A stretch of 64,000 bases of DNA from Candidatus Delongbacteria bacterium (GTDB lineage Bacteria; UBA4055): positions 309 through 64,308 of the forward strand of contig JAFGVM010000024.1 in assembly GCA_016937995.1 (NCBI GenBank). The letters are read 5' to 3'. Position numbers and translations under genes: made by a program. Shown here in pieces: positions 1-23,187 of this stretch (position 1 is the first letter of the stretch; each line of letters begins with the position of its first letter). The notes under the pieces were generated by a model. The model was not told where the DNA came from, made no database searches, and saw only the letters and a program-made list of their open reading frames with translations.

Positions 1-260
1 TCCTTGGGATCCATATCTCTTCGCAATATACCCGCTTCCTCTAAAGATGCTACAATTCTTGTCACTCCCCCTGATGTAATATTCAAGCGTTCAGCCAAAT
101 CTTTAACCGATAAAATATCTGCATCAAAATATTGTTTTAAGCAATTTAGTTCTGAACAGGTGACTTTTAATTTTGCTGCGATCTTTTTATCCTTGAATTG
201 ACAATTGATCTTCATCATATTCATTATTTGAGATATTATAGCTATTTTATTTTTATCCAT
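1..260 (-). CDS. MarR-family winged-helix regulator, 5' part (gene runs off left edge)
   Basis: Hand translation from ATG at 260: MDKNKIAIISQIMNMMKINCQFKDKKIAAKLKVTCSELNCLKQYFDADILSVKDLAERLNITSGGVTRIVASLEEAGILRRDMDPK. By hand count 57/86 residues are identical to the MarR ORF at 24045-24530. Track ORF 4..201(+) is its antisense shadow. Confidence 0.8.
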   Translation of the reverse strand, partial: MDKNKIAIISQIMNMMKINCQFKDKKIAAKLKVTCSELNCLKQYFDADILSVKDLAERLNITSGGVTRIVASLEEAGILRRDMDPK

Positions 261-288
261 ATTTTGCGCCTTTTTTAATTCACGATGT

Positions 289-317
289 AATTTATTGACA
301 CTCTCAACTATTGTCAA
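289..317 (-). promoter_or_regulatory. Sigma70-type promoter / putative MarR operator of the left MarR paralog
   Basis: Minus strand reads TTGACA (317-312), a 17-nt spacer, then TAAATT (294-289), about 30 nt before the ATG at 260. The spacer holds the inverted repeat TTGACA-N11-TGTCAA. The sequence is nearly identical to 24557-24585. Confidence 0.55.
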
Positions 318-380
318 GTGAAATATTTGACATTTTAACTTTGTTTTATTTTCGCCTCTCCGTTTTTTCTCATTTTACAC

Positions 381-409
381 TTGACTTTTGCACATATGTT
401 CATTATATT
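381..409 (+). promoter_or_regulatory. Sigma70-type promoter for the DUF134 operon
   Basis: TTGACT (381-386), 17-nt spacer, TATATT (404-409). It lies 23 nt upstream of the ATG at 432, which has a GGAGA RBS. Confidence 0.5.
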
Positions 410-431
410 TCTTCTAAACAACGGAGAATGT

Positions 432-875
432 ATGTCAAGACCTAAAATAAATAGAAGTGTTTTAAAACCACCTATGTTCACTGAATTTAAACCGGTAGGA
501 GTACCGAGCAGGATACTCTCACAGACATTTTTAAGCTTAGATGAATATGAGGCTTTTAGATTAGCTGATCACTTAGGTTTTGGGCATGAAGAAGCATCTG
601 AAGAAATGAATATTTCACGATCAACTTTTACAAGATTGATAGAACAGGCAAGAAAAAAAGTTGCGGGAATGTTGATCAATGGAAACATTCTAACAATCGA
701 AGGCGGGAATATCCATTTCAGAAAAAATACTATCCGCTGTAATTCATGTGGGCATACGTTCATTATAGACATTAATGCAAACATAGTCAAATGTCCGGAA
801 TGTAATTCTGACAGCTTACAAAACTTTGCAGGAAATTTTGGACATGGCAGATGTTGCAGAGGAAGAAATAGATAA
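432..875 (+). CDS. DUF134/UPF0251 family putative DNA-binding protein with C-terminal zinc ribbon
   Basis: MSRPKINRSVLKPPMFTEFKPVGVP...LSLDEYEAFRLADHLG...ISRSTFTRLIEQARKKVA matches the DUF134 sigma70-region-4-like HTH. There is an extra RCNSCGH...KCPECNS ribbon. GGAGA sits at 423-427. The track start at 381 falls inside the predicted -35 box. Confidence 0.8.
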   Translation: MSRPKINRSVLKPPMFTEFKPVGVPSRILSQTFLSLDEYEAFRLADHLGFGHEEASEEMNISRSTFTRLIEQARKKVAGMLINGNILTIEGGNIHFRKNTIRCNSCGHTFIIDINANIVKCPECNSDSLQNFAGNFGHGRCCRGRNR

Positions 876-910
876 AACTGTGCCATTCGTTTGACACAAA
901 GGAGGTAAAA

Positions 911-1219
911 ATGCCAAGAGGTGACAGAACGGGTCCAAACAGTGAAGGCCCAATGACAGGAAGAAGAATGGGATATTGCGCAGGCAACGATCGTCCCGGT
1001 TATACTGAAAGTAACCAATACTTCGGAAGAGGCGGTGGTGGTTTCAGAAGAAGAGGAGGAAGAGGTTTTGGCGGTGGTTTTGGTTTCCGAGGTGAAAATT
1101 TCAACTCTGATTTCACTACAAATGTATCTGAAAAAACATTGCTGGAAAATGAAATAAGAATTCTTAAAGATCAACTGAGTTCGTTGGAGAAGAAACTTAG
1201 TGAGTCGGGAGATAGATAA
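911..1219 (+). CDS. DUF5320 family protein (Gly/Arg-rich, C-terminal coiled coil)
   Basis: The N-terminus MPRGDRTGPNSEGPMTGRRMGYCAG is typical of DUF5320. It has an RGG-like stretch GRGGGGFRRRGGRGFGGGFGFRG and the tail LLENEIRILKDQLSSLEKKL. GGAGG RBS at 901-905. Confidence 0.75.
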   Translation: MPRGDRTGPNSEGPMTGRRMGYCAGNDRPGYTESNQYFGRGGGGFRRRGGRGFGGGFGFRGENFNSDFTTNVSEKTLLENEIRILKDQLSSLEKKLSESGDR

Positions 1220-1220
1220 A

Positions 1221-1469
1221 ATGAGTCTTTTTGGCAATGGTAATCGTAGCGGTAGTAGAAGAGGCCAAGGCAGATCCGCCCAGGGTCAAGATTTAGGTAA
1301 AGGCGGTGGAAAAGGTAGAAATAATGGTAGTGCCTTGGGTACAGGTGGTTCTTGTGCCTGTGCAAAATGCGGTGCTAAAATACCTCACCAGCAAGGGACA
1401 CCATGTACTCAGTTAAAATGCCATGAATGCGGGAACACACTGGTCAGAGAAGAATTATTGAATAAGTAA
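1221..1469 (+). CDS. Small Gly/Arg-rich zinc-ribbon protein (uncharacterised)
   Basis: MSLFGNGNRSGSRRGQGRSAQG...GGSCACAKCGAKIPHQQGTPCTQLKCHECGNTL contains CxCxxC...CxxxxCxxC. The start is abutted to the previous stop (1219). GGGAGA lies upstream. The alternative start at 1200 overlaps the previous gene. Confidence 0.6.
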   Translation: MSLFGNGNRSGSRRGQGRSAQGQDLGKGGGKGRNNGSALGTGGSCACAKCGAKIPHQQGTPCTQLKCHECGNTLVREELLNK

Positions 1470-1476
1470 ATAATTT

Positions 1477-1517
1477 AAACCGTCAGTCTTGAAGGCTGAC
1501 GGTTTATAATTTTTTCT
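1477..1517 (+). terminator. Rho-independent terminator
   Basis: Stem AAACCGTCAG (1477-1486) pairs with CTGACGGTTT (1496-1505), followed by ATAATTTTTTC. Confidence 0.7.
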
Positions 1518-1596
1518 TTGTATAAAAGTAAGAGAGTTAATGTCATTGGTTAAGAAATTGATCAGTGGAATTTAAAAAATTATAAAAGGAAACAAA

Positions 1597-1959
1597 ATGA
1601 AAAAATTATTCGCGGTTCCAACAGAAAACAAAAAGTTATGTGCTCATTTCGGTCATTGCGAGAAATTCGCAATAGTCGAAACTTTTGAAGGTAAGATCGT
1701 AAAAGAAGAATTTGTTGAACCACCTGAGCACCAACCTGGAACATTTCCTAAATTTTTAGCTGATATGGGAGTCAATACTATTATCGCGGGTGGAATGGGG
1801 CAAAAGGCGCAGGATCTCTTCGCAATGAACAATATAGAAGTTTATATGGGTGTTAATTCTGAAGATCCTTCTAAACTGGTTTTAAACTATTTGAACGATC
1901 AGCTTGAAACTGGAGACAATCAGTGTGGACATGGACCTGATCATGTATGTGAACATTAA
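1597..1959 (+). CDS. NifX/NifB-C-terminal-like (dinitrogenase FeMo-cofactor-binding domain) protein, paralog 1
   Basis: The core HFGHCEKFAIVE...TIIAGGMGQKAQDLF is typical of the PF02579-type fold. It has a Cys/His-rich tail GDNQCGHGPDHVCEH. Confidence 0.75.
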   Translation: MKKLFAVPTENKKLCAHFGHCEKFAIVETFEGKIVKEEFVEPPEHQPGTFPKFLADMGVNTIIAGGMGQKAQDLFAMNNIEVYMGVNSEDPSKLVLNYLNDQLETGDNQCGHGPDHVCEH

Positions 1960-1961
1960 GT

Positions 1962-2028
1962 CAGAAGTTAGAAGTTAGAAGTCAGAAGTTGATAACATAT
2001 CTAAAATCTAAATTCTAAAGTCTAAAAT
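1962..2028. repeat. Two blocks of 4 tandem heptamers in an intercistronic spacer
   Basis: (C/T)AGAAGT x4 at 1962-1989 and CTAAA(A/T/G)T x4 at 2001-2028. Confidence 0.7.
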
Positions 2029-2048
2029 AGTATTTGAGGTTAAATATA

Positions 2049-2915
2049 ATGAAAATAGCTATAGCAAGTGGTAAAGGAGGAACTGGAAAAACGACACTTT
2101 CCACCAACTTAGGAAGCTTTTTAGCTGAAAACAATGATGTCGTTTTAGTAGATCTTGATGTTGAAGAACCTAATTCAGGGTTATTTCTAAAAAGTACATT
2201 GATCAAGAAATATGACAAATTTAGAATGGTGCCTGAATGGGATCTTACAAATTGTACTTTATGTGGAAATTGTCAGAAAGTTTGTAATTTTCATGCAGTT
2301 ATTACTCTGAAAACAAAAGTAATGGTCTTTCCTCAGCTTTGTCACGGATGTTATGCCTGTAGTGAGCTATGTCCGAACAATTCTCTTCCTATGAAACAGG
2401 AGAAAATGGGAGAACTAAAACATTTCAAAGTTGGAAAGCTTAATTTTGTTGAGAGCAGATTGGATGTCGGTCAGGAACAAGCTGTCCCACTTATATCCCA
2501 AACGCTTGAATTTGTTGATGAAAAATATACGAAAGAAACAATTAAGTTATATGACTCTCCCCCGGGAACATCTTGTCCGGTGATCGAAGCAACTAAAGAT
2601 GCTGATTTTGTTATCCTCGTAACAGAACCAACGCCCTTTGGATTTCATGACCTGAAACTCGCAATAGATACAATGAGAGTTTTGAAAAAAGAGATTGGAG
2701 TTGTTGTCAATCGTTATGGTATAGGCAATAACGATGTAATTGATTACTGTGAAAAAGAAAATATTCCTGTAATAGCCACTATACCCAATGATAGGAAAAT
2801 TGCAGAACTTTATTCCCGGGGAGAATTATTATACGATAAAATTACTGAAGTAAAAAAAGAATTAGAAAAAATAAGTAAATTTATTTTTGATAGAAATATC
2901 GGAGGTAACAAATGA
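2049..2915 (+). CDS. MinD/ParA-type P-loop ATPase with inserted 2x[4Fe-4S] ferredoxin domain (COG1149-like), copy 1
   Basis: Deviant Walker A IASGKGGTGKTT. Ferredoxin motifs CTLCGNCQKVC and CHGCYACSELCP. ATG at 2049 follows TGAGGT. Confidence 0.85.
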   Translation: MKIAIASGKGGTGKTTLSTNLGSFLAENNDVVLVDLDVEEPNSGLFLKSTLIKKYDKFRMVPEWDLTNCTLCGNCQKVCNFHAVITLKTKVMVFPQLCHGCYACSELCPNNSLPMKQEKMGELKHFKVGKLNFVESRLDVGQEQAVPLISQTLEFVDEKYTKETIKLYDSPPGTSCPVIEATKDADFVILVTEPTPFGFHDLKLAIDTMRVLKKEIGVVVNRYGIGNNDVIDYCEKENIPVIATIPNDRKIAELYSRGELLYDKITEVKKELEKISKFIFDRNIGGNK

Positions 2916-3787
2916 AAGAAATTGTAGTAATCTCCGGTAAAGGTGGAACTGGTAAAACATCTATCACTGCTTCTTTTGCGTATTTAGGCGGAAAAGATGT
3001 TGTTGTTGCTGATTGCGATGTCGATGCAGCTGATATGCATCTTCTGATGGAACCAAAAAAGTCTACTGCTGAAGATTTTTATAGTGGTGTTCTTGCAGAG
3101 ATAGATCAAAATTTATGTGTTAAATGCGGTAAATGTTCAGAAGTTTGTCGCTGGAATGCAATACCTTGTAAAAATGATGAATATACAGTTAACCCATTAG
3201 ACTGTGAAGGATGTGGATATTGTGCTCGTGTTTGTCCAATGGAAGCTATTAGTATGAATGAGCAAAATGTTGGAGAATGGTTTATATCTGAAACAAGAGT
3301 AAACAATACCATGATACATGCAAGACTTGGCATCGGCTCTGAAAACTCTGGAAAACTTGTTGCACATGTTAAGAATAAAGCAAAAATGTTAGCTTTAGAA
3401 ACTAAAAAAGATTTCATTATTGTCGATGGTTCTCCCGGTATTGGTTGTCCTGTTGTATCATCTCTTTCAGGTGCTCATTTTGTGGTTCTTGTAACCGAAC
3501 CTACTGTGGCAGGGCTACACGATCTGAGAAGAGTTTATCAACTTGTAAATAAATTTCAAATTCCTGCAGGATGTATAATTAACAAGGCTGACTTGAATAA
3601 TGAAGTTTCTGATGAAATAAAAGAATTTCTTGATGAGGAAAAAATTGTACATTTAGCTGATCTTCCATATGATGAAAATTTCACTAAGGCTATGACACTG
3701 GGTAAAACAATAGTAGAATATGATAAAAGTAAGTTAAGAGAAACTCTGACAGATACTTGGAACGAGATAAAAAGAATAGTTATGTAA
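2912..3787 (+). CDS. MinD/ParA-type P-loop ATPase with inserted 2x[4Fe-4S] ferredoxin domain (COG1149-like), copy 2
   Basis: ISGKGGTGKTS, CVKCGKCSEVC and CEGCGYCARVCP motifs. There is a 4-nt ATGA overlap with copy 1. Confidence 0.85.
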   Translation: MKEIVVISGKGGTGKTSITASFAYLGGKDVVVADCDVDAADMHLLMEPKKSTAEDFYSGVLAEIDQNLCVKCGKCSEVCRWNAIPCKNDEYTVNPLDCEGCGYCARVCPMEAISMNEQNVGEWFISETRVNNTMIHARLGIGSENSGKLVAHVKNKAKMLALETKKDFIIVDGSPGIGCPVVSSLSGAHFVVLVTEPTVAGLHDLRRVYQLVNKFQIPAGCIINKADLNNEVSDEIKEFLDEEKIVHLADLPYDENFTKAMTLGKTIVEYDKSKLRETLTDTWNEIKRIVM

Positions 3788-3914
3788 GGAACGCAGGGAT
3801 GCGTTCCACAGCGTCTCTTTTTTACGACCAGCAAATGGATCTCCGTATTCCCGATAAATCGGGATAAACCGATGCACGAAGATGACAAAATGTAAGGGCG
3901 TTATTTATAACGCC
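3788..3914. repeat. Cluster of three GC-rich hairpin elements (dispersed family)
   Basis: GGAACGCA-ggga-TGCGTTCC (3788-3807). TCCCGATAAATCGGGA (3849-3864), flanked by an ATGACA box at 3882-3887. GGCGTTA-ttta-TAACGCC (3897-3914). Copies of each type recur elsewhere in the window. Confidence 0.7.
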
Positions 3915-3941
3915 AACTTATTAAAAAAAAGGAGAAATAAA

Positions 3942-4280
3942 ATGAAAATAGCATTTACTACGCAGGGAACTGAATGGGATTCAAAAATGGATCCCCGATT
4001 TGGTAGAGCAGCCTGGATACTTGTATATGATGAAGATACTGACAAATTCTCATCAATAGACAACTCTGATGTTGCCGGGGAAGCTCACGGAGCCGGTCCG
4101 AGAACAGCGCAAAGATTATTCGAATTTCAACCTGATGTTTTGATCACAGGTAATGGTCCGGGTGGAAATGCGGGTACAGCTCTGAAGGAAGCAGGAATTG
4201 TTTCTTACATAGGAGCCGGAGATATGACTGTTAAAGAAGCTTTTAGTGCTTTTAAGAATAACAGTCTTAAAAAGGCATAA
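3942..4280 (+). CDS. NifX/NifB-C-terminal-like protein, paralog 2
   Basis: MKIAFTTQG...DPRFGRAAWILVYD...VLITGNGPGGNAGTAL. AAGGAGA RBS before the ATG at 3942. The track start at 3882 lies in a repeat element. Confidence 0.75.
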   Translation: MKIAFTTQGTEWDSKMDPRFGRAAWILVYDEDTDKFSSIDNSDVAGEAHGAGPRTAQRLFEFQPDVLITGNGPGGNAGTALKEAGIVSYIGAGDMTVKEAFSAFKNNSLKKA

Positions 4281-4344
4281 AAATCAATGAATTTAGAAGA
4301 TGTATATATTCTAAATAGTATAAATAAAATTAGAAGGTAACAAA

Positions 4345-5694
4345 ATGAAGACGGATGTAGTAGTTATAGGCAGTAGCGCAGCCGGAATGGTTGTAGCTGC
4401 AACAGGTAAGAGAGTTCATCCTGAAAAAGATTTTACTGTGGTTACAAAACAACCAAAGACAATGATTCCATGCGGAATTCCATATATCTTTGGTTCTGTT
4501 GAAACCTCGAACAATAATATTCTTCCTGCAGAAAAAGTTTTTGAGCAGGCTGGAATTAAGGTAATACATGATGTGATTACTAAAATTGATCGAAAAAACA
4601 AAACTTGTGAATTAAAAAGCGGGGATAAATTAGAATACGATAAATTGGTCATCGCTACTGGTTCTACACCCCACAAACCTACGTGGCTAAAAGGACTTGA
4701 GAAAAATAATGTTTTCTTTGTTCCAAAGGATAAAATTTATCTTGATGATATGCAGGATCAATTAAAAGATTGTAAAGATATTGTTACGATCGGTGCAGGC
4801 TTCATTGGAGTTGAAATGTCTGATGAACTGAATAAAAACGGTAAGAATGTAACATTGATAGAAAAAATGCCTAATATTCTGGGATTAGCATTTGACAAAG
4901 AAATTTCAGAAAAAGTTGAAAAGATTTTAAAGGAAAGAGGAGTTAATCTTCTGACAGGAATAAGTGTTAAAGAAATTGTAGGATCAGAATCAGCTGAAGG
5001 TGTGCTACTCGATAATGGTGATATTTTAAAAGCAGATGCCATAATTATTTCGATGGGTTACAGACCAGATGTTAAATTAGCTAAAAAAGCAGATATTCCG
5101 TTAAACGATCAAGGATTTATTCGGGTGGATGAATATATGAGAACTTCAGACCCAGATATTTTTGCTATTGGTGACTGTGCTGAAAAAAGAGACTTTGTAA
5201 CTAGAAAACCAAATCCCGTAATGCTTGCTTCAACTGCTTGTGCGGAAGCTCGTACGGCTGGAATGAATCTATTTAAACTTTCTGTTATTAAAACTTTTAG
5301 CGGAACTATCTCTATCTTTTCTACAGCTATAGGAAATAGCGGTTTCGGAGTGGCCGGATTAACAGAATCTCAGGCGATTGCTGAAGGATTTGAAATTGTT
5401 ACAGGATATGCTGAAGGTATTGACCGACATCCAGGTTCTCTTGCAGATTCACACCAGCAGTGTGTTAAATTGATCGTTGGTAAAGAATCAGGTGTAATTC
5501 TCGGTGGAGAAGCTTGCGGTGGTTTATCAACAGGAGAGCTTGTAAATATGATCGGAATTGTTATTCAAAACAGAATGAATATCAATTCACTATTTACTGC
5601 TCAAATAGGTACTCACCCACTCCTAACAGCTTCACCTGCAGGATATCCGTTGTTGAAAGCAGTAGAAAATGCATTAATAAAATGGAGAAAGTAA
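4345..5694 (+). CDS. FAD-dependent pyridine nucleotide-disulfide oxidoreductase, CoA-disulfide reductase / NADH oxidase / NSR-like
   Basis: VVVIGSSAAG FAD fold and TIGAGFIGVEMSDEL NAD(P)H fold. There is a single Cys43 in MIPCGIPY, at the position of the redox-active Cys of the CoADR/Nox family. GDCA motif present. Confidence 0.8.
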   Translation: MKTDVVVIGSSAAGMVVAATGKRVHPEKDFTVVTKQPKTMIPCGIPYIFGSVETSNNNILPAEKVFEQAGIKVIHDVITKIDRKNKTCELKSGDKLEYDKLVIATGSTPHKPTWLKGLEKNNVFFVPKDKIYLDDMQDQLKDCKDIVTIGAGFIGVEMSDELNKNGKNVTLIEKMPNILGLAFDKEISEKVEKILKERGVNLLTGISVKEIVGSESAEGVLLDNGDILKADAIIISMGYRPDVKLAKKADIPLNDQGFIRVDEYMRTSDPDIFAIGDCAEKRDFVTRKPNPVMLASTACAEARTAGMNLFKLSVIKTFSGTISIFSTAIGNSGFGVAGLTESQAIAEGFEIVTGYAEGIDRHPGSLADSHQQCVKLIVGKESGVILGGEACGGLSTGELVNMIGIVIQNRMNINSLFTAQIGTHPLLTASPAGYPLLKAVENALIKWRK

Positions 5695-5730
5695 TTATTT
5701 AAGATATAATATTTGTAAATCGGAGACTAA

Positions 5731-6126
5731 ATGGAATTAATAACAGCATTTGCAACTGATGACGGTAAATTATTTATGGACAGGCATTTCGGTGATGCGA
5801 AGTACTATGATATTTATAGGATTTCTGCATCTGGTATGGAGCTTATTAAAAGAATTGATAATACCACTGAAGAAGAGGAAGAAGAAATTCATGCTGATCC
5901 AAGGAAAGCTAAAGACATTTCAGGGTTACTGAAAGAAGAAAATGTACAAGTTGTTGTTTCTAAAGTTTTTGGTCCGAATATTAAAAGGATAAAGAAAAAT
6001 TTCGTTTGTGTCGTTATGGAGAAAGAAAAAGAAATTTTTGATAGTATCGCGAAAATGCAAAGTTTTTTTGACATTATTGTTAGGGAATGGGAAAAAGGTG
6101 AAGACAGATTGATCTTTAAAATTTAA
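5731..6126 (+). CDS. NifX/NifB-C-terminal-like protein, paralog 3
   Basis: DRHFGDAKYYDIY...VQVVVSKVFGPNIKRI, with an acidic insert TTEEEEEEIH. Confidence 0.65.
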   Translation: MELITAFATDDGKLFMDRHFGDAKYYDIYRISASGMELIKRIDNTTEEEEEEIHADPRKAKDISGLLKEENVQVVVSKVFGPNIKRIKKNFVCVVMEKEKEIFDSIAKMQSFFDIIVREWEKGEDRLIFKI

Positions 6127-6139
6127 TTCAGGTGACAAA

Positions 6140-6583
6140 ATGAAAACTAAAGTCGGTATTATAATTTGTGACCGGTATAAAAGTTGTGCCGGTGGAAAAT
6201 GCTTTAGATCTTTACAGGAAAGAGATGGGGCATTCAGTATTTATCCTAAAGAAGAGGATGTTCAAATAGTTGGATATACTTCTTGCGGTGGTTGTCCCGG
6301 TGGGAATATTGAATATACTCCTGAAGAAATGATCAAGAACGGGGCAAATGTAATTCATCTTGCAACAGGAATGGTTGTCGGATATCCTCCATGCCCCTTT
6401 ATTGATCATTTTAGAAAATTTATTACTGAAAAATATGGAATAAAAGTTATTGTGGGGACTCATCCGATACCTGAGAAATATTATAAGACTCATCATGAAC
6501 TGGGTACATGGAATTCCCCTGAATGGCAGGAGATGATATCTCTTGTTTTACCTGATCAAAAAACCAGATTAAAGTACGATTAA
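6140..6583 (+). CDS. CGGC-domain protein
   Basis: Contains CDRYKSCAGGKC...YTSCGGCPGG. The CGGC signature and many conserved Cys/His fit the PF08821-type family. Confidence 0.8.
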   Translation: MKTKVGIIICDRYKSCAGGKCFRSLQERDGAFSIYPKEEDVQIVGYTSCGGCPGGNIEYTPEEMIKNGANVIHLATGMVVGYPPCPFIDHFRKFITEKYGIKVIVGTHPIPEKYYKTHHELGTWNSPEWQEMISLVLPDQKTRLKYD

Positions 6584-6640
6584 GCTAATCTATTAAAATG
6601 AATTTGTATTTCAGCAGAAACAAAAATTGATATTTAGTGA

Positions 6641-6669
6641 AAAAAGCCCGAAACATTTCGGGCTTTTTG
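6641..6669. terminator. Bidirectional Rho-independent terminator between convergent genes
   Basis: AAAAAGCCCGAAAcaTTTCGGGCTTTTT, with A/T runs on both sides. Confidence 0.8.
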
Positions 6670-6693
6670 CTATTGCAAATATTTTAAAAATAT

Positions 6694-9600
6694 TTACTTC
6701 TCAGAATTTGTAGATTCTATAACCATTCCTTTACTCGAACTACCGGCAGTAACACGATAAAACTTCTTACTATCGCTATGTGGTTCTGACCACGAATTTG
6801 TCGTAAGTTGTAAACCAACTGCTGTCCAGCTTGCTGGGAATACTGCTTCAGGATCTTCACTGCTGTAAACGGTGTAAACAATACCTTTTGTATTGATTGG
6901 CATCTCATCCCAAGTCAAGTTCACATTAGCACCATCATCTGTGATGCTGACACCTGAAGGAGGAATAACTGTGATAAAGGACTGGATCGCTGACCAGTCT
7001 GAAACCTGAGAATCAGCATCAATAGTCTTAATATGGTAATAATATCTGTATCCACCATCTAGAGAGGGAGTTAGCTGAGTAAATGTCTCCCCTGCTTCAG
7101 TTGTATCTGAAAATAAAACAGAGCTGAAAGTATTTACACTGTCAAGTTCGATCGTATATCTAAGATCTTCTGCATGACCGTCAGGATCAGTCGCATTTCC
7201 CCAGCTGATCATAGGAGAACTGTCTGCAATATCATCATTTGCAGGAGAAAATCCTGAAATAGGAGCATTTGGCAATGACCCACCTGTAGTTGGCTTATAT
7301 ATGAAACTAGCAGGAGTCTCTGAGAATATCGTAAACCTGTTTATTCCAAGATAAACCGGCTTCATTCTCCAGTAGTAAGTTGTATTATTAACTAAACTGT
7401 CGAACTGACTTAGAGAATTCAAAGCCTGTCCGATGTAGAATGTTTTACCCTCATTTGTGATCTTACTGCCGGAATTCTTATCAAGCAGCATTGTTTCTTC
7501 GATTGGATTTGAAAACTCAGGATCCTCATCTATCTGAATAACATAATAGTCAAGATACTCGGGATATACATATTCCCATTGAAGCATATCAGCTTCAGTC
7601 ATTCCATCTTTTGAAGTGATCTCAAGATCTCTTGGTGATGGAATAACGAAAGTCGGTGATGAAGCGAATTCAGAACCTGCAAAAGCATGATCAATTGCCT
7701 GAACTTTCCATGAAACGGTTTTCCCACCCTGAGGTAAGAATGTGTAAAAGCCATTTATATTGTAGAAGGTATTTTGAGAAGCATTTCCTATATCAACAAC
7801 TTTTCTATAGCCATCTGTAAGATCTGACATTCCGGCATTAATACTCTCACCTGTAACTTGTACATCAATGTTGTATGATAATCCGTTTTGAGGTGTTTCG
7901 AGATCTAAAGCAGGATTAAAAGATAATTTTAATGAATCATTTTCAATTTTAGTGATCAATCTACTAGGCTTTGAAGGAATAGTATTTGAAATTTCTGAAT
8001 TGTTTCTATATATCTTAGTAATTCTAACATCAGATTCCGTATTTCCTTCAATTAATATGTCAAGGTCACCATCATTATCATAATCTCCCCATAAAGCATG
8101 ACAACTCCTAATTCCAGTTATGCCTGTATTGATACCATTAAAAACACCTGAATCATTTCTATACACTTTGGATACATAACCACTGCCTGAATCACCCGCC
8201 AATATTATGTCAAGATCGCCATCGTTATCAAAATCTCCCCAAGCAGCTGAACAAAGGGAAACGCCTGTTAAACCAGCGTTTATGTCGGTAAAAACACCTG
8301 AATTATTTTGATAAATTTCTGAAATACTATATGGATCTGAATTTATACCACCAGCCAACAAAACATCCAAATCACCGTCATTATCATAATCTCCCCATAC
8401 TGCAGAACCTATAAATACACCTGCCAATCCTGCTCCAATATCTGTAAATTGTCCTGAATCGTTGCGATATATCTTTGAAATATACTCAGATCCGGTATTG
8501 CCGGTTAATAAAATATCAAGGTCTCCATCATTATCATAATCGCCCCAGTCTACTGAACTTTTAGAAACTTCAATTAAACCTGCATTGATATCAGTATATG
8601 TTCCTGAATCATTACGATATACATTCGAAATCATTCCTGAGTTTGCATATCCTGTCAATAAAATATCAAGATCACCATCATTATCATAATCACCCCAGGC
8701 AACAGCCCCGACAGTCACATCTTCTAATCCTGCATTGATATCAGTAAATACTCCTGAATCATTACGATAAATTTTTGAAACATCTCCAGACCCTGTATAT
8801 CCGGTCAATAAGATATCCAAATCTCCGTCATTATCATAATCGCCCCAAGCTACGGAACTCGCATAAACTCCTTCTAATCCTGCATTTATATCGTAAAATA
8901 ATCCCGAATCGTTGCGATAGATTTTTGAAATATCTCCAGACCCTGTATATCCAGTCAATAAAATATCAAGATCACCATCATTATCATAATCACCCCATTC
9001 AGTTGATCCGGTTGCTCCCATTAAACCCGCTTCGATATCATCAAAAGCTCCTACGAATGTAAATGATTGTTCCGTTCCAAAAACTGATCCAGCAAATCCG
9101 TTATCCACAGCCTGAACACTCCAATAATATGTTCCTGAACGTAGATCATGGATCGTGTATGATGTATTCTGATTAATATTTCCTAAGCTTACAACTTTTC
9201 TGTAACCGTTGGAAGCATCGCTCATTGAACTTTTTATTTCATCATTTCCGCTTGTTGTACTAATGTAAAGATTATATGATAGTCCATCCTGAGGAGTTTG
9301 TGCATCCGTTGATTTGTTCCAGGTTAGCGTTGCATCAAATCTGTCCGATACTACAGATAATCCTGTCGGTGCGCTTGGAGGAGTATTCTTTGGTGCAGAA
9401 TTATTTCTGTATATCTTAGAAATACTCCCTGATCCTCCTGTATCACCGCTTAATAAAATATCCAGGTCGCCGTCATTATCATAATCTCCCCAGGCAGCAG
9501 AACTATACTCAACACCTACTAATCCCGCATTTATATCGGTAAATACTCCTGAATTATTACTATATATTTTAGTATAATAAGAACCTGTTAACAAGATATC

Positions 9601-10950
9601 TAAATCTCCATCGTTATCATAATCTCCCCAAGCAGCTGACCCCTCCCATACTCCTTGTAATACAGCATTTACATCATTAAATATACCTGAATCATTTCTG
9701 TAGATTTTTGAAATATAATGAGCAGTTCCTTCATAATAATAACCAGTCAGTAAAATATCAAGATCGCCATCATTATCATAATCTCCCCATGAAACTGAAC
9801 CAGAAGAAACACCTGTTAATGCAGCATTGATATCTGAGAAAACTCCGTTATCATTTCTATATACCTTTGAAATATTACCGGAAGTTATACTTCCTGTAAG
9901 CAATAAATCTAAGTCTCCATCATTATCATAATCTCCCCAAGATACTGAGCTATAAACAGCACCTTGTAAACCTGCATTTATATCAAAAAAACTACCTGAA
10001 TCGTTTCTATATATCTTAGTAATCTTACCTTCAGATTCTGTATAACCTGACAGTACTAAATCAAGATCACCATCATTATCATAATCTCCCCAAGCAACTG
10101 ATCCGGAAGCAGCTCCTGGTAATCCTGCATTTATATCTGTAAAAATTCCAGAATCGTTTCTATATATTTTAGAGACATATACTGACCCTGTATAACCTGA
10201 CAGTACAACATCAAGATCTCCATCGTTATCATAATCTCCCCAAGAAACTGAACCAGAAGAAACACCTGTTAATGCAGCATTGATATCTGAGAAAACTCCG
10301 TTATCATTTCTATATACCTTTGAAATAAATCCTAAATCAGTTATTCCGGTCAATAAGATATCAAGATCCCCGTCATTATCATAATCTCCCCAAGCAACTG
10401 AGCTATCACTTACATCATCTATTCCAGCTTCTATATCTGTAAAATCTCCAAAATATCCTGTAACTATCACATCATCAATATACCAGTCATCACCATCAGT
10501 ATTAGCATAATTCCATCCTAAATACACATCTTGTCCCATATATGCATCAAGTGATATAGTGACCTGCTGATAAGTATCTTCGGGAGGAAGATCTGAATAC
10601 AGACTTGTCCAATGAATCTTATCTGTAGAAACACAAAAATCATGAACATCAGCATGATAATCATAATCAATATTCTCCCAAAATGTCACTTTTACAGAAT
10701 CATATATATCTATAGATATAAGAGGTGTAGTAACCCAGTCATCACTAGTACCCTGACCAGTATGGATCATTGAATATGTTCCTTTATAAGGTCTGTTCGC
10801 ACTTTTGGTAAATCCTCCACCAGTTGTTTGAAGTGACCAACCTGTAGGAGGAAAAGTTCCCTCAAAAGTTTCGAATATCAACTTAGAAGTACCACTTGCC
10901 ATTAAAAAAGTCACTGAACTCATCAGTAGTAGTATTAATGTTTTTTTCAT
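6694..10950 (-). CDS. Secreted 1418-aa FG-GAP/VCBS repeat protein with two 7-bladed propellers, FN3-like domains and an N-terminal choice-of-anchor-J-like domain
   Basis: It has a signal peptide. There are 14 copies of WGD(Y/F)DNDGDLD in two groups of seven, each followed by a module of the form GLSYN...GYRKVV...QA(V/I)D..FAGS. C-terminal FN3-like repeats follow. No T9SS CTD is recognisable. Confidence 0.9.
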   Translation of the reverse strand: MKKTLILLLMSSVTFLMASGTSKLIFETFEGTFPPTGWSLQTTGGGFTKSANRPYKGTYSMIHTGQGTSDDWVTTPLISIDIYDSVKVTFWENIDYDYHADVHDFCVSTDKIHWTSLYSDLPPEDTYQQVTISLDAYMGQDVYLGWNYANTDGDDWYIDDVIVTGYFGDFTDIEAGIDDVSDSSVAWGDYDNDGDLDILLTGITDLGFISKVYRNDNGVFSDINAALTGVSSGSVSWGDYDNDGDLDVVLSGYTGSVYVSKIYRNDSGIFTDINAGLPGAASGSVAWGDYDNDGDLDLVLSGYTESEGKITKIYRNDSGSFFDINAGLQGAVYSSVSWGDYDNDGDLDLLLTGSITSGNISKVYRNDNGVFSDINAALTGVSSGSVSWGDYDNDGDLDILLTGYYYEGTAHYISKIYRNDSGIFNDVNAVLQGVWEGSAAWGDYDNDGDLDILLTGSYYTKIYSNNSGVFTDINAGLVGVEYSSAAWGDYDNDGDLDILLSGDTGGSGSISKIYRNNSAPKNTPPSAPTGLSVVSDRFDATLTWNKSTDAQTPQDGLSYNLYISTTSGNDEIKSSMSDASNGYRKVVSLGNINQNTSYTIHDLRSGTYYWSVQAVDNGFAGSVFGTEQSFTFVGAFDDIEAGLMGATGSTEWGDYDNDGDLDILLTGYTGSGDISKIYRNDSGLFYDINAGLEGVYASSVAWGDYDNDGDLDILLTGYTGSGDVSKIYRNDSGVFTDINAGLEDVTVGAVAWGDYDNDGDLDILLTGYANSGMISNVYRNDSGTYTDINAGLIEVSKSSVDWGDYDNDGDLDILLTGNTGSEYISKIYRNDSGQFTDIGAGLAGVFIGSAVWGDYDNDGDLDVLLAGGINSDPYSISEIYQNNSGVFTDINAGLTGVSLCSAAWGDFDNDGDLDIILAGDSGSGYVSKVYRNDSGVFNGINTGITGIRSCHALWGDYDNDGDLDILIEGNTESDVRITKIYRNNSEISNTIPSKPSRLITKIENDSLKLSFNPALDLETPQNGLSYNIDVQVTGESINAGMSDLTDGYRKVVDIGNASQNTFYNINGFYTFLPQGGKTVSWKVQAIDHAFAGSEFASSPTFVIPSPRDLEITSKDGMTEADMLQWEYVYPEYLDYYVIQIDEDPEFSNPIEETMLLDKNSGSKITNEGKTFYIGQALNSLSQFDSLVNNTTYYWRMKPVYLGINRFTIFSETPASFIYKPTTGGSLPNAPISGFSPANDDIADSSPMISWGNATDPDGHAEDLRYTIELDSVNTFSSVLFSDTTEAGETFTQLTPSLDGGYRYYYHIKTIDADSQVSDWSAIQSFITVIPPSGVSITDDGANVNLTWDEMPINTKGIVYTVYSSEDPEAVFPASWTAVGLQLTTNSWSEPHSDSKKFYRVTAGSSSKGMVIESTNSEK
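7998..9033 (-). repeat. Intragenic repeat array: FG-GAP blades 8-14
   Basis: Approximate bounds from residues about 640-985. Neighbouring blades are near-identical at the DNA level (for example 8761-8850 versus 8881-8970). Confidence 0.8.
9393..10443 (-). repeat. Intragenic repeat array: FG-GAP blades 1-7 (about 150 bp period)
   Basis: Approximate bounds from protein residues about 170-520. Includes an exact 84-bp duplicate (9791-9874 = 10244-10327). Confidence 0.8.
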
Positions 10951-10962
10951 GTCTAGCTCCGA

Positions 10963-12153
10963 TTATTTAATTTCTTCTAGTTCTGTAAGAATGTATTCCA
11001 GATCTCCAAAAGGAGATGATTTTTCAACTATTGTCTTGGCATATACTCCTGGTTTATCATTTATCATCCAGTATTTCACTTTATCTTCTCCGTTGAATCC
11101 TTCAGTTACCGTACAAGTGAACTTACCTGCCGGAACTTCAACATCCTCTACTCCGATTATCTTGTAGTCATAATCAGTAAGTTTTTCTTCAGGGAAAAAG
11201 ATATTGTCGGATTCATTCGATTCATCTTTGATCTTATCTGAGATTTCTGTTGTATCATTTTTTGTTAAACTGAAATTTGTGAAATTAACTCTATAATTTT
11301 CTTCATCGACAATGACTTTAGAAAGAATAGTACTCTTTTTAAAAGCATTAATTTTTTCTATCAATACTCCTCTGCTATACTTTAAATATTTTACACTCTT
11401 TAAATAATTTATCATCTCCTGAAGATCGACCCATGGTAAACTAATCTCGCTGATCTGCTCTTCCTCAAAATCCTCGTAAACAAAAGTTAATCTTTCCAAT
11501 TCGCCGGCATCTGAATTATCCTTCACTGCATTTAAGACAGTACCTTTGCAATCAATAGTCAATTCTGAAGCAGTAATTTTCATTATATTATTCTTCCCTT
11601 TCAAATAACTGTTAAATCCCAACATTGTAAGAGAATTTTCTTTAGGATCAAAAATCCATGTTCCGTTGGTGGTTGAAGTTTCATTTTCATTGTAACTTAT
11701 CATAACAAATTCATCAGGCTCTGTAAATTTCAGCAGATTAGTATATCCGTCATTATCGTTAAACTTCCAAAGACCGAAAAGACCTGATTTTAAATTATTA
11801 AGCTTAATTTTATCCTGATCGATCTTGATGTAAAATAATTTCGCTTCATCTTTAGTCATTATTAACTCAGCATCGGTGTTTTTAATTATTTTGCTCTCAC
11901 CGTTAAAATCTTTATCCAATTCAGATTCAGTAATAATACTATTATCTTCTTTATTGAATTTCCATGTACCGGCATCCATACCCATAATGATCATTTTTCC
12001 GTCGACCTGATATTCTGTAATGTAATAAGGTTCTTGAACATCACCACCTACTTCAGCTTTGGTCATCAACCAGCTTCCAACTATTTTTGCTTCTTGTGCG
12101 TTGATCATGACCGCTAAGATCATTACCGTTAATAGTATTACTGTTTTTTTCAT
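10963..12153 (-). CDS. Secreted protein with repeated lipocalin-like modules (hypothetical)
   Basis: Signal peptide MKKTVILLTVMILAVMINAQ. Recurrent motifs GSWLM / GTWKFNKEDNS / GLWKFNDNDG / GTWIFDPKENS. It ends 12 nt upstream of the FG-GAP gene, so it is probably in the same operon. Confidence 0.6.
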   Translation of the reverse strand: MKKTVILLTVMILAVMINAQEAKIVGSWLMTKAEVGGDVQEPYYITEYQVDGKMIIMGMDAGTWKFNKEDNSIITESELDKDFNGESKIIKNTDAELIMTKDEAKLFYIKIDQDKIKLNNLKSGLFGLWKFNDNDGYTNLLKFTEPDEFVMISYNENETSTTNGTWIFDPKENSLTMLGFNSYLKGKNNIMKITASELTIDCKGTVLNAVKDNSDAGELERLTFVYEDFEEEQISEISLPWVDLQEMINYLKSVKYLKYSRGVLIEKINAFKKSTILSKVIVDEENYRVNFTNFSLTKNDTTEISDKIKDESNESDNIFFPEEKLTDYDYKIIGVEDVEVPAGKFTCTVTEGFNGEDKVKYWMINDKPGVYAKTIVEKSSPFGDLEYILTELEEIK

Positions 12154-12510: not shown

Positions 12511-12957
12511 TTATATATTGATCCCGTAAGGATTTTGAATATATTCCCTGAGTTCTTTCACTTCAGTCTCTGACTGCTCAAGAACCTGTTTTAGAACATC
12601 ACCGATGGATAATATTCCAATTAGCTTTCCATCTTCAACTACAGGAAGATGCCTGACTCTCTTGTTGATCATCACATCCATTGCATAGCTTAATCTTTCA
12701 TCTTTAGTTGCAATGATGAGATCCTCTTTCGGAGTCATAATATCTTTGATCTTCATTGTTTCAGGATGACCGTCACATTTGTAAAGAACATCTCTCTCAG
12801 TTACGATACCCTGAAGTTTTGAACTGCCGTCAGTAACAACTAAAGATCCAACTCTATGTTTTCCGAATAACTCAACCGCTTCTTTTGCAGTACTGTTAAT
12901 ATCGATATTAAAAGTCTCTGTACTTTGTTTCTTCTTTAGTAAATCTGTTAATTTCAT
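12511..12957 (-). CDS. CBS-pair domain protein
   Basis: Two CBS motifs (VGSLVVTDG..LQGIVTERDV and VRHLPVVEDGKLIGILSIGDV). It is the last gene of the Mbx-like operon, 14 nt after the previous stop. Confidence 0.85.
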   Translation of the reverse strand: MKLTDLLKKKQSTETFNIDINSTAKEAVELFGKHRVGSLVVTDGSSKLQGIVTERDVLYKCDGHPETMKIKDIMTPKEDLIIATKDERLSYAMDVMINKRVRHLPVVEDGKLIGILSIGDVLKQVLEQSETEVKELREYIQNPYGINI

Positions 12958-12971
12958 ATCACATCTCCTGT

Positions 12972-14765: not shown

Positions 14766-14802
14766 GTTAATCCTCTATATAAAAACTTTCTATTCTTGGT
14801 TT

Positions 14803-14879
14803 AGAGTTTTGAGTTGTTGGTTTTGAGTTATTGGGAACTTATCCTCACAACTCACAACCCGCAACTCACAACTATCTCT
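14803..14879. repeat. Long imperfect hairpin built from heptamer repeats (TTTTGAG / CTCACAA) in an intercistronic spacer
   Basis: The left arm agagttttgagttgttggttttgagttattggg is approximately complementary to the right arm cctcacaactcacaacccgcaactcacaactatctct. It overlaps the stop codon of the NuoD-like gene. Confidence 0.6.
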
Positions 14880-16050: not shown

Positions 16051-16081
16051 CTACTGTCCTCTAATTTTGTTTTATTATTAT

Positions 16082-16120
16082 GTGCTGTGAGACGTTGCGG
16101 GGCAACGTCTCTACGAGCAC
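16082..16120. repeat. Strong GC-rich hairpin element between the nuoC-like and nuoD-like genes
   Basis: GAGACGTTGC-ggg-GCAACGTCTC (16089-16111), extended by GTGCT/AGCAC. It shares GCAACGTCTCTAC with 24032-24044 and TGTGAGACG with 56412-56420. Confidence 0.75.
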
Positions 16121-16684
16121 CTAACCCTGATCCGGATACAATTTTGATTTCATGTATTCCTTTGTATCATAACTCTTCCTTCCTTCTCTCGGGAAGAAAT
16201 TATCTGTAGCATATTTCAATGTATCAAAATCTCTTCTCATAGGTGGGATATCATCCCAGTCTTCCAGTACAAAATCATCATTAACACCGGGACTGCCGGG
16301 AAAATCGATGCCGAATAATTCTTTAATTTCTCTCTGATCTGTTTGTGCATGTATCCATAGATGATGAATAGAATCCATAACAGGATTATCTCTGTCAATA
16401 TCAACTCGGATAGCAATATCATATTTGTTTACAGGATGATTTAAAATGTATGTCAGCTGAAATTTGTTCTCTTCCAGCCAGTCAACACTTGACAGCATTA
16501 TCAAATGTGTAAAACCTTCAAGCTCTTTCAGATAATTCAGAATATCGACAAGTAATTTTTTCCCGATAGAAAAAAACAGCAGATCATCCCTTTTCTGAAG
16601 AACATCCGTGATCTCATATTTACTTTTTATCTTTTCTAATATTTCATTCATATCTTTTAATCCTATTTTAATTCCTATATCCAT
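16121..16684 (-). CDS. NuoC / MbxK-like subunit
   Basis: LTYILNHP...DIAIRVDI...FGIDFPGSP...DWDDIPPMRRDF is typical of the 30-kDa NuoC family. An alternative start is at 16651. Confidence 0.8.
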   Translation of the reverse strand: MDIGIKIGLKDMNEILEKIKSKYEITDVLQKRDDLLFFSIGKKLLVDILNYLKELEGFTHLIMLSSVDWLEENKFQLTYILNHPVNKYDIAIRVDIDRDNPVMDSIHHLWIHAQTDQREIKELFGIDFPGSPGVNDDFVLEDWDDIPPMRRDFDTLKYATDNFFPREGRKSYDTKEYMKSKLYPDQG

Positions 16685-16814
16685 ATAATCCCAAAATTGC
16701 TTTAAACGAAGATTTACAAGGAAGAGTGATATTACTTCGAAATGGAGCTTGGTTAACCCAAGTGACTTGAGAAGGAATTCACTCTGACGAAGTAAATCAA
16801 AGTTTAAAAAATTT
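16685..16814 (-). other. 130-nt structured spacer inside the operon (crossing complementary segments)
   Basis: On the plus strand AGAGTGA (16723-29) is complementary to TCACTCT (16779-85). TTACTTCG (16732-39) is complementary to CGAAGTAA (16788-95). A CTTGG-ttaac-CCAAG hairpin lies between them. Confidence 0.4.
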
Positions 16815-17459: not shown

Positions 17460-17474
17460 TTATTTAAACCTCTA

Positions 17475-23186: not shown

Positions 23187-23187
23187 T

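Follow-up and report, generated by a model that had tools for sequence, protein, structure and literature searches.

Introduction

Which system is encoded by a run of ten co-directional genes that brings together NifX-like proteins, ferredoxin-bearing MinD-type ATPases, cysteine-rich proteins, a flavoprotein and a putative regulator? This question is raised by positions 432-6583 (+ strand) of a 64,000-nucleotide stretch of DNA from a Candidatus Delongbacteria bacterium (assembly GCA_016937995.1, contig JAFGVM010000024.1, positions 309 to 64,308 of the forward strand), which, at its full length, is called here the window. We argue that these genes (g1 to g10, in their order on the strand) very probably form an ORP (orange protein)-type gene cluster, in the version carried by Cloacimonadota.

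The ORP complex and its orp operons were reportedly described by Fievet et al. in 2011 in Desulfovibrio vulgaris Hildenborough (DVU2103-DVU2109), and we know of no biochemical role that has been assigned to the complex since that description. [quoted passage not shown] A preliminary description of the window had considered the ten genes a functionally uncharacterised cluster with no assigned function. However, the cluster is not an unnamed one, its core corresponding to the ORP gene set (PMC6345978, PMC8359166).

Identity of the cluster

The assignment is made because of the match of g7 with an ORP of known structure, the match of g4 with MrpORP, the fit of g5 and g6 to the published Orp3 and Orp4, and the one-to-one hits between the cluster and a locus that bears a true MrpORP. 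Thus, g7 (3942-4280, + strand), an Orp8-like protein of the NifX-like family PF02579 (45.9 bits, cut-off 26.3) with the motif DPRFGRA and without cysteine, aligns through residues 2-107 with the ORP of Desulfovibrio gigas (2WFB; E=4.7e-11, 46 bits) and also matches TM1290 (1RDU; E=2.1e-11), being closer to ORP than to the IssA-type protein MTH1175 (35 bits). The product of g4 (1597-1959, + strand; PF02579, 71 bits, cut-off 26.3) is a stand-alone Nitro_FeMo-Co, or Di-Nase, protein of the MrpORP C-terminal type. It scores 122.7 bits against the NCBIfam MrpORP model NF041136 at model positions 266-365, the C-terminal 100, and does not reach the cut-off of 450, only the Di-Nase domain being present. 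It has the motif LCAHFGHCE and C-terminal Cys/His residues; in MrpORP, the CxHFGHCE and C-terminal Cys/His motifs of this domain have been assigned to [3Fe-4S] binding (Pardoux et al., PMC6345978).

Between these two genes lie g5 (2049-2915, + strand) and g6 (2912-3787, + strand), which overlap by 4 nt (ATGA) and encode paralogous MinD-type ATPases with a deviant Walker A motif and an inserted domain of the two-[4Fe-4S] ferredoxin type (Pfam CbiA/MinD plus two Fer4). Their sequences show them to be the two anciently duplicated MinD/NifH-like ATPases. In Desulfovibrio, the paralogues Orp3 and Orp4 are MinD-like, each bears two ferredoxin motifs of the [4Fe-4S] type, and both co-purify with Orp8 and are matured by MrpORP, Orp9 being a further member of the complex; these ATPases and the Di-Nase domain both bind iron-sulfur (Fe-S) clusters (PMC6345978). 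The labels Orp3-like for g5 and Orp4-like for g6 are provisional, as they follow this published description, and the comparison with DVU2103-2109 rests on 2WFB, the NCBIfam MrpORP model and later papers.

The most direct bridge to the archetype is offered by a deltaproteobacterial locus (L064, the same as L082) that encodes a true MrpORP (505.9 bits against the cut-off of 450), adjoined by a MinD-ferredoxin pair, an ORP-type NifX protein, a ribbon protein like g3, DUF134, DUF5320 and an orthologue of g8. Between this locus and the window, g1 and g3-g8 each have a single best counterpart, at 32-56% identity, with 40% for the DUF134 protein (g1), 44.5% for g4 and the C-terminal domain of MrpORP, 44% for g5 and the first ATPase, 49% for g6 and the second, and 56% for g8 and its flavoprotein. 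A scan seeded with the MrpORP of this locus returned only close relatives among deltaproteobacterial metagenome-assembled genomes (MAGs). A DUF134 gene beside an ORP cluster is seen in this MrpORP-bearing locus; DVU2107 is presumably a DUF134 gene beside the Desulfovibrio orp cluster too.

Like the Desulfovibrio system, the window cluster joins a MinD-type ATPase pair with two [4Fe-4S] motifs to an ORP-type single-domain Nitro_FeMo-Co protein, further small Nitro_FeMo-Co proteins and a Cys/His Di-Nase domain, and both are restricted to anaerobes. Unlike Desulfovibrio MrpORP, g4 is a free domain that is not fused to an Mrp/NBP35 ATPase. No gene for such an ATPase is present in the cluster, and no Mrp/NBP35 protein was found among the Pfam-scanned open reading frames (ORFs) of the window, four smaller ORFs lying outside the scan. 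Furthermore, the window cluster is one co-directional array instead of two divergent operons, and it has a sigma-70-type promoter with a palindromic operator and a divergent MarR gene, with neither a sigma-54 promoter nor OrpR. It carries, in addition, DUF5320, a zinc-ribbon protein, a flavoprotein resembling coenzyme A (CoA) disulfide reductase (CoADR), a third NifX-like protein and a CGGC protein.

The gene content itself is well established. All ten ORFs are present and co-directional, as the preliminary description stated. The same ten genes, together with a full-length divergent MarR, were called independently on L001, a public contig of identical sequence (Logan SRR13394436). Its family calls also stand, since each Pfam-assigned family exceeds its Pfam cut-off, g3 being the gene for which the Pfam search matched no family. 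Closest homologues of the cluster proteins are found in Candidatus Cloacimonadota MAGs, at 89-90% identity. Pfam scans of the window ORFs detected no nitrogenase gene in the 64 kb, in agreement with what had been claimed, and profile hidden Markov models (HMMs) built from the cluster proteins revealed no second ORP-type gene set in the window. An Rfam scan of positions 1-7000 (E<=1) returned only sub-threshold noise for riboswitches or other RNA elements.

Conservation of the cluster and its companions

Two independent sets of loci were taken from contigs representing one genome per species and annotated with profile HMMs built from window proteins, the first seeded with g6 (79 loci) and the other with g8 (80 loci, Thermoplasmatota included). 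In the g6-seeded set, whose phyla include Cloacimonadota, Bacteroidota, Calditrichota, Spirochaetota, Chlorobiota, Fidelibacterota and Aminicenantes, the order DUF134, DUF5320, zinc ribbon, a first NifX protein (NifXa), two MinD-ferredoxin ATPases and a second NifX protein (NifXb) is collinear in about 80 genomes of many phyla. Among the 44 loci with enough upstream flank, DUF134 is found in 35, and DUF5320, the zinc ribbon and NifXa in 31 each, whereas on the other side of the ATPase pair the g7-type NifXb follows directly in 49 of 52 loci. Further downstream, a CoADR-like gene of either of two clades lies within 2.6 kb after ATPase-NifXb in 17/52 loci, the g9-type NifX subfamily recurs in 22 loci, and CGGC is found within 7.5 kb in 14/34. 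The genes g1-g3 and g8-g10 are recurrent companions of the ORP core.

The co-occurrence of these families as a conserved cluster in many anaerobes, which the preliminary description had put forward, is borne out in two sets of about 80 genomes each. The opposite reading, in which the genes are independent and stand side by side by chance, could appeal to the two terminator-like hairpins inside the cluster, and to the fact that neither MarR nor the gene downstream is a conserved neighbour. It is refuted by the neighbourhood analysis: the adjacency goes far beyond chance because the same families recur in the same order in two independent sets, and the gene fusions and the shared operator described below, together with the collinearity across phyla, reduce its probability to almost nothing.

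In some relatives, cluster proteins that are separate in the window are joined on one polypeptide. Thus, an ORP-type NifX domain is fused to a GGGRG-repeat tail in L078 and to DUF5320 in L064, a NifX domain is fused to a g3-type ribbon in L032 and L038, and DUF134 is fused to a g3-type ribbon in L034, L035 and L065. These fusions make the DUF5320 and g3-type proteins probable partners of NifX domains.

In Bacteroidota and other phyla (L104-L180, e.g., L138, L140, L144, L146 and L180), the ORP core heads long same-strand arrays, to which a cupin, a DTD-like protein, a methyltransferase, a glyoxalase, a metallo-beta-lactamase, ARMT1/DUF89, CGGC, a radical SAM enzyme, an ArsP_2 permease and PLP (pyridoxal phosphate) enzymes are added. 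This mixture resembles a set for the damage control or detoxification of thiols (perhaps of CoA), and the window cluster represents a compact version of these arrays. Within them, CGGC often adjoins ARMT1 and the radical SAM gene. It was also observed that in some Cloacimonadota MAGs the ORP-type cluster is present twice, as paralogues that are about 70% identical to each other (L002 and L133 in GH32; L102 and L113 in AUK116), whereas the window shows one only. In the literature searched, no description of this version of the cluster was found, and there were essentially no papers on DUF134, DUF5320 or CGGC.

Properties of the individual proteins

The first gene, g1 (432-875, + strand; PF02001, 76.7 bits, cut-off 27), encodes a DUF134 helix-turn-helix protein, a putative autoregulated repressor, whose C-terminal part has a zinc ribbon (CxxC...CxxC) and whose tail reads H-G-x-C-C. 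Its recognition helix, SRxTFxR, is invariant in the alignment of cluster homologues. The ribbon (CxxC-x14-CxxC), which had been described as an added one, does exist, but 61 of the 63 homologues belonging to such clusters have it too, so that it is a trait of the DUF134 subfamily and not peculiar to this window.

It is followed by g2 (911-1219, + strand; PF17253, 87 bits, cut-off 27), a DUF5320 protein with a conserved N-terminal MPRGDRTGP..GYC motif, a Gly/Arg/Phe-rich middle segment (GRGGGGFRRRGGRGFGGGFGFRG) and a C-terminal coiled coil, and by g3 (1221-1469, + strand), a small ribbon protein with six Cys, one His and a Gly/Arg-rich N-terminus. The latter, identified through its conservation, belongs to a family with the motif CxCxxCG-x4-H-x5-C-x4-CxxCG, which also occurs in MrpORP-type clusters.

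As for the ATPases, the 187 MinD-ferredoxin sequences compared preserve, without exception, the SGKGGTGKT motif, the eight cysteines of the ferredoxin domain and an additional Cys within DxxPGxxCPV (Cys176 in g5). Both proteins remain below the cut-offs of the MinD models, g5 and g6 scoring 62.2 and 71.6 bits against TIGR01969 (cut-off 201.75) and 44.2 and 47.0 bits against TIGR01968 (cut-off 212.9). They share with NifH, Nbp35-Cfd1 and CooC the class of dimeric deviant-Walker-A ATPases with a Cys at the switch-II interface, and we infer by analogy that the extra Cys of DxxPGxxCPV may correspond to the interface ligands that hold a cluster or a metal in NifH, Nbp35 and CooC. What sets g5 and g6 apart from these is the di-cluster ferredoxin inserted in them and the presence of only one invariant Cys at the interface in each subunit.

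The NifX-like proteins of the window are small alpha/beta Nitro_FeMo-Co proteins, as are the FeMo-co carriers NifX, NafY and the C-terminal domain of NifB, although the window provides no nitrogenase gene context. The third of them, g9 (5731-6126, + strand; PF02579, 38.1 bits, cut-off 26.3), which has an HFGDAKYY motif and an acidic insert, scores 33.5 bits against the nifX model TIGR02663, below its cut-off of 112.

The last gene, g10 (6140-6583, + strand; PF08821, 103 bits, cut-off 27), encodes a CGGC-domain protein with six conserved Cys and three conserved His. Its AlphaFold2 model (pLDDT 94) predicts a flavodoxin-like alpha/beta fold. This fold was considered as a clue to function and set aside, given that Foldseek searches against the PDB returned only generic flavodoxin-like structures (E>1e-3, query-normalised TM-scores 0.32-0.47).

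Promoter, operator and transcription units

The cluster is preceded by a promoter on the + strand at 381-409, with a -35 box TTGACT (381-386) and a -10 box TATATT (404-409) separated by a 17-nt spacer, that is conserved in the related Cloacimonadota locus L102. Inside the spacer lies the strandless 16-bp palindromic operator TTGCACATATGTTCAT (388-403), which conforms to the consensus ATG[A/C]ACATATGT[G/T]CAT. Promoter-like matches by themselves are not in excess (19 against 24 expected from shuffles), and only the one at 381-409 is backed by both conservation in L102 and the operator. No further copy of the operator was found by the motif scan of the window, and its sequence had no match in the literature searched.

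The same palindrome fills the -35/-10 spacer upstream of DUF134 genes in many phyla. A relaxed form of the motif matches 78 times in 1.98 Mb of fetched loci, 57 of them upstream of DUF134, so that 53 of 64 DUF134-bearing loci are covered; five more matches stand upstream of a DUF5320 gene that heads the cluster, and another five upstream of CoADR-like genes, four of which form stand-alone pairs with a NifX gene. A motif-only scan with an exact 19-mer over all genome contigs (596 Gb) detected at least 120 loci. Among the matches listed, the first downstream gene belongs to a cluster family in 71/120 (DUF134 in 50, DUF5320 in 12, the zinc-ribbon protein in 5 and NifX in 4), 24 more loci hold cluster genes nearby in the stretch, six are at a contig edge and 19 are unrelated, this last figure, itself a lower bound, being about the chance number calculated for the whole collection.

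The DUF134 protein most likely binds the palindrome as an autoregulated repressor. This is suggested by the way in which the operator accompanies the cluster from phylum to phylum, by the lack of any other DNA-binding candidate and by the invariance of the recognition helix of DUF134. A reading of the palindrome as a LexA 'Cheo box' (GAAC-N4-GTTC) was rejected, since the motif, which belongs with a single gene cluster, can also read GCAC...GTGC through variation at its A/C and G/T positions. A sigma-54 promoter of the Desulfovibrio kind was likewise discarded, with no TGGCAC-N5-TTGC site in the window, a MarR gene upstream and a promoter of the sigma-70 type. In L034, L035, L065, L136 and L174, two tandem operator copies with slightly different half-sites (e.g., GAACCATGGTTC) stand upstream of DUF134.

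On the + strand, a hairpin resembling an intrinsic terminator, with a 14-bp stem and a T run, follows g3 (1476-1516, the hairpin at 1476-1506), and another terminator-like hairpin follows g6 (3795-3828, the hairpin at 3795-3818). Their positions suggest three units, g1-g3, g4-g6 and g7-g10, of three, three and four genes. The distal genes would then need read-through or unrecognised internal promoters.

The flavoprotein and its clade

The flavoprotein g8 (4345-5694, + strand; Pyr_redox_2, 215 bits, plus Pyr_redox_dim) is a pyridine-nucleotide-disulfide oxidoreductase of the group formed by CoADR, persulfide reductases and Nox, with a single redox cysteine. This residue, Cys43 in PCGIPY, aligns with the CG(I/L)PY motif of Pyrococcus horikoshii CoADR (PhCoADR) and Archaeoglobus fulgidus NoxA-3 (AfNoxA-3). 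Among the CoADR-like proteins, 99% of those in clade A and 92% of those in clade B retain it. The highest similarity is to archaeal CoADR and persulfide reductases (165-170 bits, 85-90% average alignment confidence). Like the reductases of CoA disulfide, CoA persulfide and sulfur with NAD(P)H (P. horikoshii CoADR 3KD9/4FX9, A. fulgidus NoxA-3 6PFZ, and the CoA-persulfide reductase 8A56), g8 has the FAD/NAD(P)H two-dinucleotide fold with a dimerisation domain and one redox-active Cys in an N-terminal PCGIPY-type motif. Unlike them, it lacks a rhodanese domain, belongs to its own clade, with 53-89% identity across bacteria and Thermoplasmatota (archaea), and falls below the cut-offs of both CoADR equivalogs (235.9 bits against NF007123, cut-off 458; 235.4 bits against TIGR03385, cut-off 578.8).

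The CoADR-like gene had been presented as embedded in the cluster here. It is not a peculiarity of this window, because such a gene is present in 17/52 related loci and a stand-alone orthologue carries the operator. When neighbours in the g8-seeded set were clustered without supervision, within about 4 kb on each side, ORP-type families proved to be the commonest: across the 80 loci, MinD-ferredoxin was counted 19 times, three NifX subfamilies 11, 9 and 5 times, CGGC 10, DUF134 9 and DUF5320 8. In Bacteroidales (L011, L012, L015 and L063), stand-alone pairs of a CoADR-like and a NifX gene bear the cluster operator upstream.

In four genomes of Deltaproteobacteria, Bipolaricaulota and Thermotogae (L073, L043, L055 and L071), the g8 orthologue lies directly 3' of an Mbx-like operon, which ends in the same Fer4+Fer4_20+Pyr_redox_2 (SudA-like) fusion as that encoded at 12972-14765 of the window. 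The flavoprotein is, for this system, a better link to the Mbx-like operon than MarR.

Other surroundings of g8 orthologues were also recorded. In Geopsychrobacteraceae (L021 at 8652-9908, and also L019, L032 and L038), a NifU_N-Mrp/NBP35 fusion of 419-441 amino acids, stop to stop, is directly upstream of the g8 orthologue, and in L034 and L035 this position is occupied by a plain ApbC/Mrp-like gene. At L057 (11317-12956) and eight other loci, mostly of Thermoplasmatota, a radical SAM gene comes after the g8 orthologue and there are no ORP genes; in a few of these, a methyltransferase gene also follows. Further recurrent neighbours are XylR_N/V4R-type sigma-54 activators (8 loci) and Crp/Fnr regulators (7 loci).

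The divergent MarR gene and the Mbx-like operon

Upstream of the cluster and divergent from it, the window contains the 5' part of a MarR-family gene (1-260, - strand), whose product shows 67% identity to a second MarR encoded at 24045-24530 (PF01047, 47.9 bits versus 24.6). On the public contig L001, the upstream MarR is complete (179 amino acids) and carries PF01047. Four Cys are conserved in both paralogues, which is compatible with thiol- or metal-based sensing. The first MarR gene has its own promoter region (288-320, - strand), with an imperfect palindrome TTGACA-N11-TGTCAA that the alignment shows to be common to 24556-24587, and a promoter-like site on the minus strand at 317-289. The 17-mer CTCAACWATTGTCAAGT occurs, within the window, only at the two MarR promoters, and about 90 nt of upstream DNA are also similar between the two genes.

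The second MarR gene (24530-24045) heads an Mbx-like operon outside the cluster (12511-24530, - strand), with genes of the Mnh E/G/B and NuoK/L-M/H/B/C/D-like types, a CBS protein and the SudA-like fusion. This last protein (12972-14765, 597 amino acids) joins a NuoI-like ferredoxin subunit (Fer4+Fer4_20) to a GltD/SudA-like NAD(P)H flavoprotein module (Pyr_redox_2), and the NuoD-like subunit has no CxxC or NiFe-site cysteines. This composition suggests that the operon encodes an ion-translocating ferredoxin:NAD(P)+ oxidoreductase.

The preliminary description had tied the cluster to this operon through the paralogous MarR promoter. Both the paralogy and the shared promoter are real, but the shared DNA is the promoter of MarR itself, and that of the cluster is separate. 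Because of this, and because no MarR was detected beside any of the 159 related loci searched, including the 90%-identical L102, where the cluster promoter region is conserved and the upstream gene is not MarR, the link is lineage-specific and suggestive at best. The idea that a MarR operator could be the cluster-wide signal was rejected for the same absence at related loci, and because the 17-mer is confined to the two MarR promoters. For the majority of ORP-type clusters, the examined flanks contain no Mbx-like operon.

Some other features of the window were noted. A sigma-54 activator with AAA+ and HTH_8 domains and without an N-terminal sensor or receiver domain is encoded at 24705-25859 (+ strand), divergent from the second MarR gene. 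Convergent with the cluster, at 6694-10950 (- strand), there is a gene for a secreted FG-GAP/VCBS repeat protein of 1418 amino acids, whose repeats are near-identical at the protein level (WGDYDNDGDLD). Five large ORFs, of 384-1099 amino acids (10963-12153, 31711-32865, 32946-36053, 36334-37536 and 56507-59806), have no Pfam family at the thresholds used.

Proposed mechanism and alternatives

Handling of a metal/sulfur cofactor, which was already put forward as a general idea in the preliminary description, is rated here as the best reading of the cluster. In its mechanistic form, an ATP- and redox-driven handling of metal-sulfide clusters, we consider it about evenly balanced between being right and being wrong. 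A heterodimer of g5 and g6 would draw on ATP and on electrons of low potential for the loading, remodelling or transfer of an inorganic metal sulfide, perhaps an Fe-S or a thiometallate cluster, held on the NifX-like carriers g4, g7 and g9, which the Gly/Arg-rich g2 (DUF5320) and g3 (zinc ribbon) would assist. With NAD(P)H as electron donor, the flavoprotein g8 would reduce the disulfide or the persulfide of CoA, or polysulfide, and in this manner supply sulfide or keep the Cys-rich g3 and g10 reduced. Transcription would start from the single sigma-70-type promoter, repressed by DUF134 until a signal, be it the redox state, a metal or sulfide, is perceived.

Several points weigh against this proposal, or against carrying over to it what is known from Desulfovibrio. 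Two elements of the Desulfovibrio system, the Mrp/NBP35 carrier domain and the control by sigma-54 and OrpR, are missing from the cluster, and for ORP in that genus the published proposal is a role in cell division (PMC6345978). Outside Desulfovibrio, the literature searched contained no experiments on these proteins. For the NifX-like proteins, Fe-S, Mo/W-Cu-S and thioferrate are all conceivable ligands; g8, at about 236 bits, stays well below the CoADR equivalog cut-offs; and the fold search of CGGC (g10) against the PDB with Foldseek yielded no functional hint. The binding of the palindrome by DUF134 is deduced from co-inheritance across phyla only, so that another widespread regulator might act there, and the internal terminator-like hairpins mean that the ten genes may not share one transcript.

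Among the alternatives, the cluster might be the bacterial counterpart of the archaeal response to elemental sulfur (S0) and serve as a store of Fe-S mineral. When sulfide or polysulfide is in excess, the NifX-like proteins and their Gly/Arg-rich partners would lock iron and sulfide away in a polymer of the thioferrate type, with g8 as an NSR-type NAD(P)H sulfur/persulfide reductase, the Mbx-SudA complex regenerating NAD(P)H from ferredoxin and the Cys-bearing MarR pair in the role of SurR. We regard this as possible but rather unlikely. Its model is IssA (SipA) of Pyrococcus furiosus, in which a NifX-type domain (IPR003731) is followed by a cationic, glycine- and aromatic-rich tail that binds thioferrate (PMC5524996), and to which the window proteins are similar in combining a NifX-type domain with a cationic Gly/Arg/aromatic-rich segment (as in the middle of g2, GRGGGGFRRRGGRGFGGGFGFRG) in an anaerobic, sulfide-rich context. 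In Thermococcales, S0 induces SipA, SipB, NSR, SuDH and the membrane complex together (PMC4463584), and the window has a paralogous MarR at the head of an Mbx-like operon with a SudA-like fusion, four Cys common to both MarR proteins, and a flavoprotein whose orthologues stand directly behind Mbx-like operons in four genomes. An IssA-like architecture is also reached through the fusions of relatives (L078 with its GGGRG-repeat tail, L064 with DUF5320), NifX and its cationic or ribbon partner being fused on one polypeptide in L078, L064, L032 and L038. However, they are unfused in the window, where, unlike in IssA, the NifX domain (g4, g7 and g9) and the cationic segments (g2 and g3) belong to separate proteins, and DUF5320 and g3 bear in addition a coiled coil or a Cys ribbon. 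Furthermore, g7 is nearer to ORP (46 bits) than to the IssA-type MTH1175 (35 bits), MrpORP has no cationic tail (Pardoux et al., PMC6345978), and no MarR was detected beside the other clusters examined and mostly no Mbx-like operon within their examined flanks.

The handling or detoxification of thiometallates (Mo/W-Cu-S), with an ORP-type protein binding such clusters and the ATPases processing them, has the rationale that sulfidic habitats turn molybdate and tungstate into copper-trapping thiometallates. The ORP of D. gigas, homologous to g7, was in fact described with a non-covalent S2MoS2CuS2MoS2 cluster (cited in PMC6345978), and the extended clusters of other phyla carry, on the same strand, an ArsP_2 permease, a methyltransferase, a glyoxalase, a metallo-beta-lactamase and a cupin. 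But these detoxification-like shell genes are absent from the window, the annotated recurrent neighbour families include no Mo/W or Cu transport gene and no molybdopterin gene, the Mo-Cu cluster of ORP may be an isolation product, and other ORP components bind Fe-S (PMC6345978), so we consider this improbable. Still less credit is given to a role in cell division or positioning, in which anaerobes without MinCDE would rely on the MinD-like ATPases to position the septum or the chromosome. It agrees with the published proposal for Desulfovibrio ORP and the polar localisation of MrpORP (PMC3897727, PMC4672049, PMC6345978), and with the deviant Walker A of MinD/ParA type in g5 and g6; nonetheless, neither ATPase comes near the cut-offs of the MinD models (62-72 bits, with about 202-213 required), every companion either binds metal or sulfur or is a redox protein, the recurrent neighbours include no division gene, and the co-regulated partners in relatives include a flavoprotein, a radical SAM enzyme and PLP enzymes.

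Going beyond the handling of metal-sulfide clusters, a more speculative model, to which we concede only a minor probability, would unite these elements. DUF134 would be the dedicated repressor of a pan-phylum ORP regulon marked by ATG[A/C]ACATATGT[G/T]CAT, and the ORP core would join with the g8-type flavoprotein and the SudA-fused Mbx-like complex in a bacterial analogue of the archaeal sulfur response. In it, the Mbx-SudA complex would produce NAD(P)H in a ferredoxin-driven, ion-translocating process, the flavoprotein would use this NAD(P)H to reduce sulfane sulfur or CoA persulfide, and the resulting iron sulfide would be captured, stored or re-used on the NifX-like carriers and their IssA-like cationic partners.

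Significance

At its core this is a known kind of system, and no new principle has been demonstrated. The analysis shows that the widespread DUF134/DUF5320/NifX/MinD-ferredoxin cluster is the ORP system in another regulatory and accessory setting. With respect to the literature searched, the probable control by DUF134 and its operator, the DUF5320 and ribbon partners, and the addition of a CoADR-like, a NifX-like and a CGGC gene are new, and with respect to the Desulfovibrio archetype so are the lack of the Mrp fusion and of sigma-54 control. Handles for testing are now at hand, namely an operator with its candidate repressor, fusions that pair DUF proteins with NifX domains, a flavoprotein partner under the same operator, and the recurrent link of this flavoprotein to Mbx-like respiratory complexes. 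If the cluster does handle Fe-S or other metal sulfides, it would add a pathway of cluster trafficking or storage beside ISC, SUF and NIF in many anaerobic bacteria.

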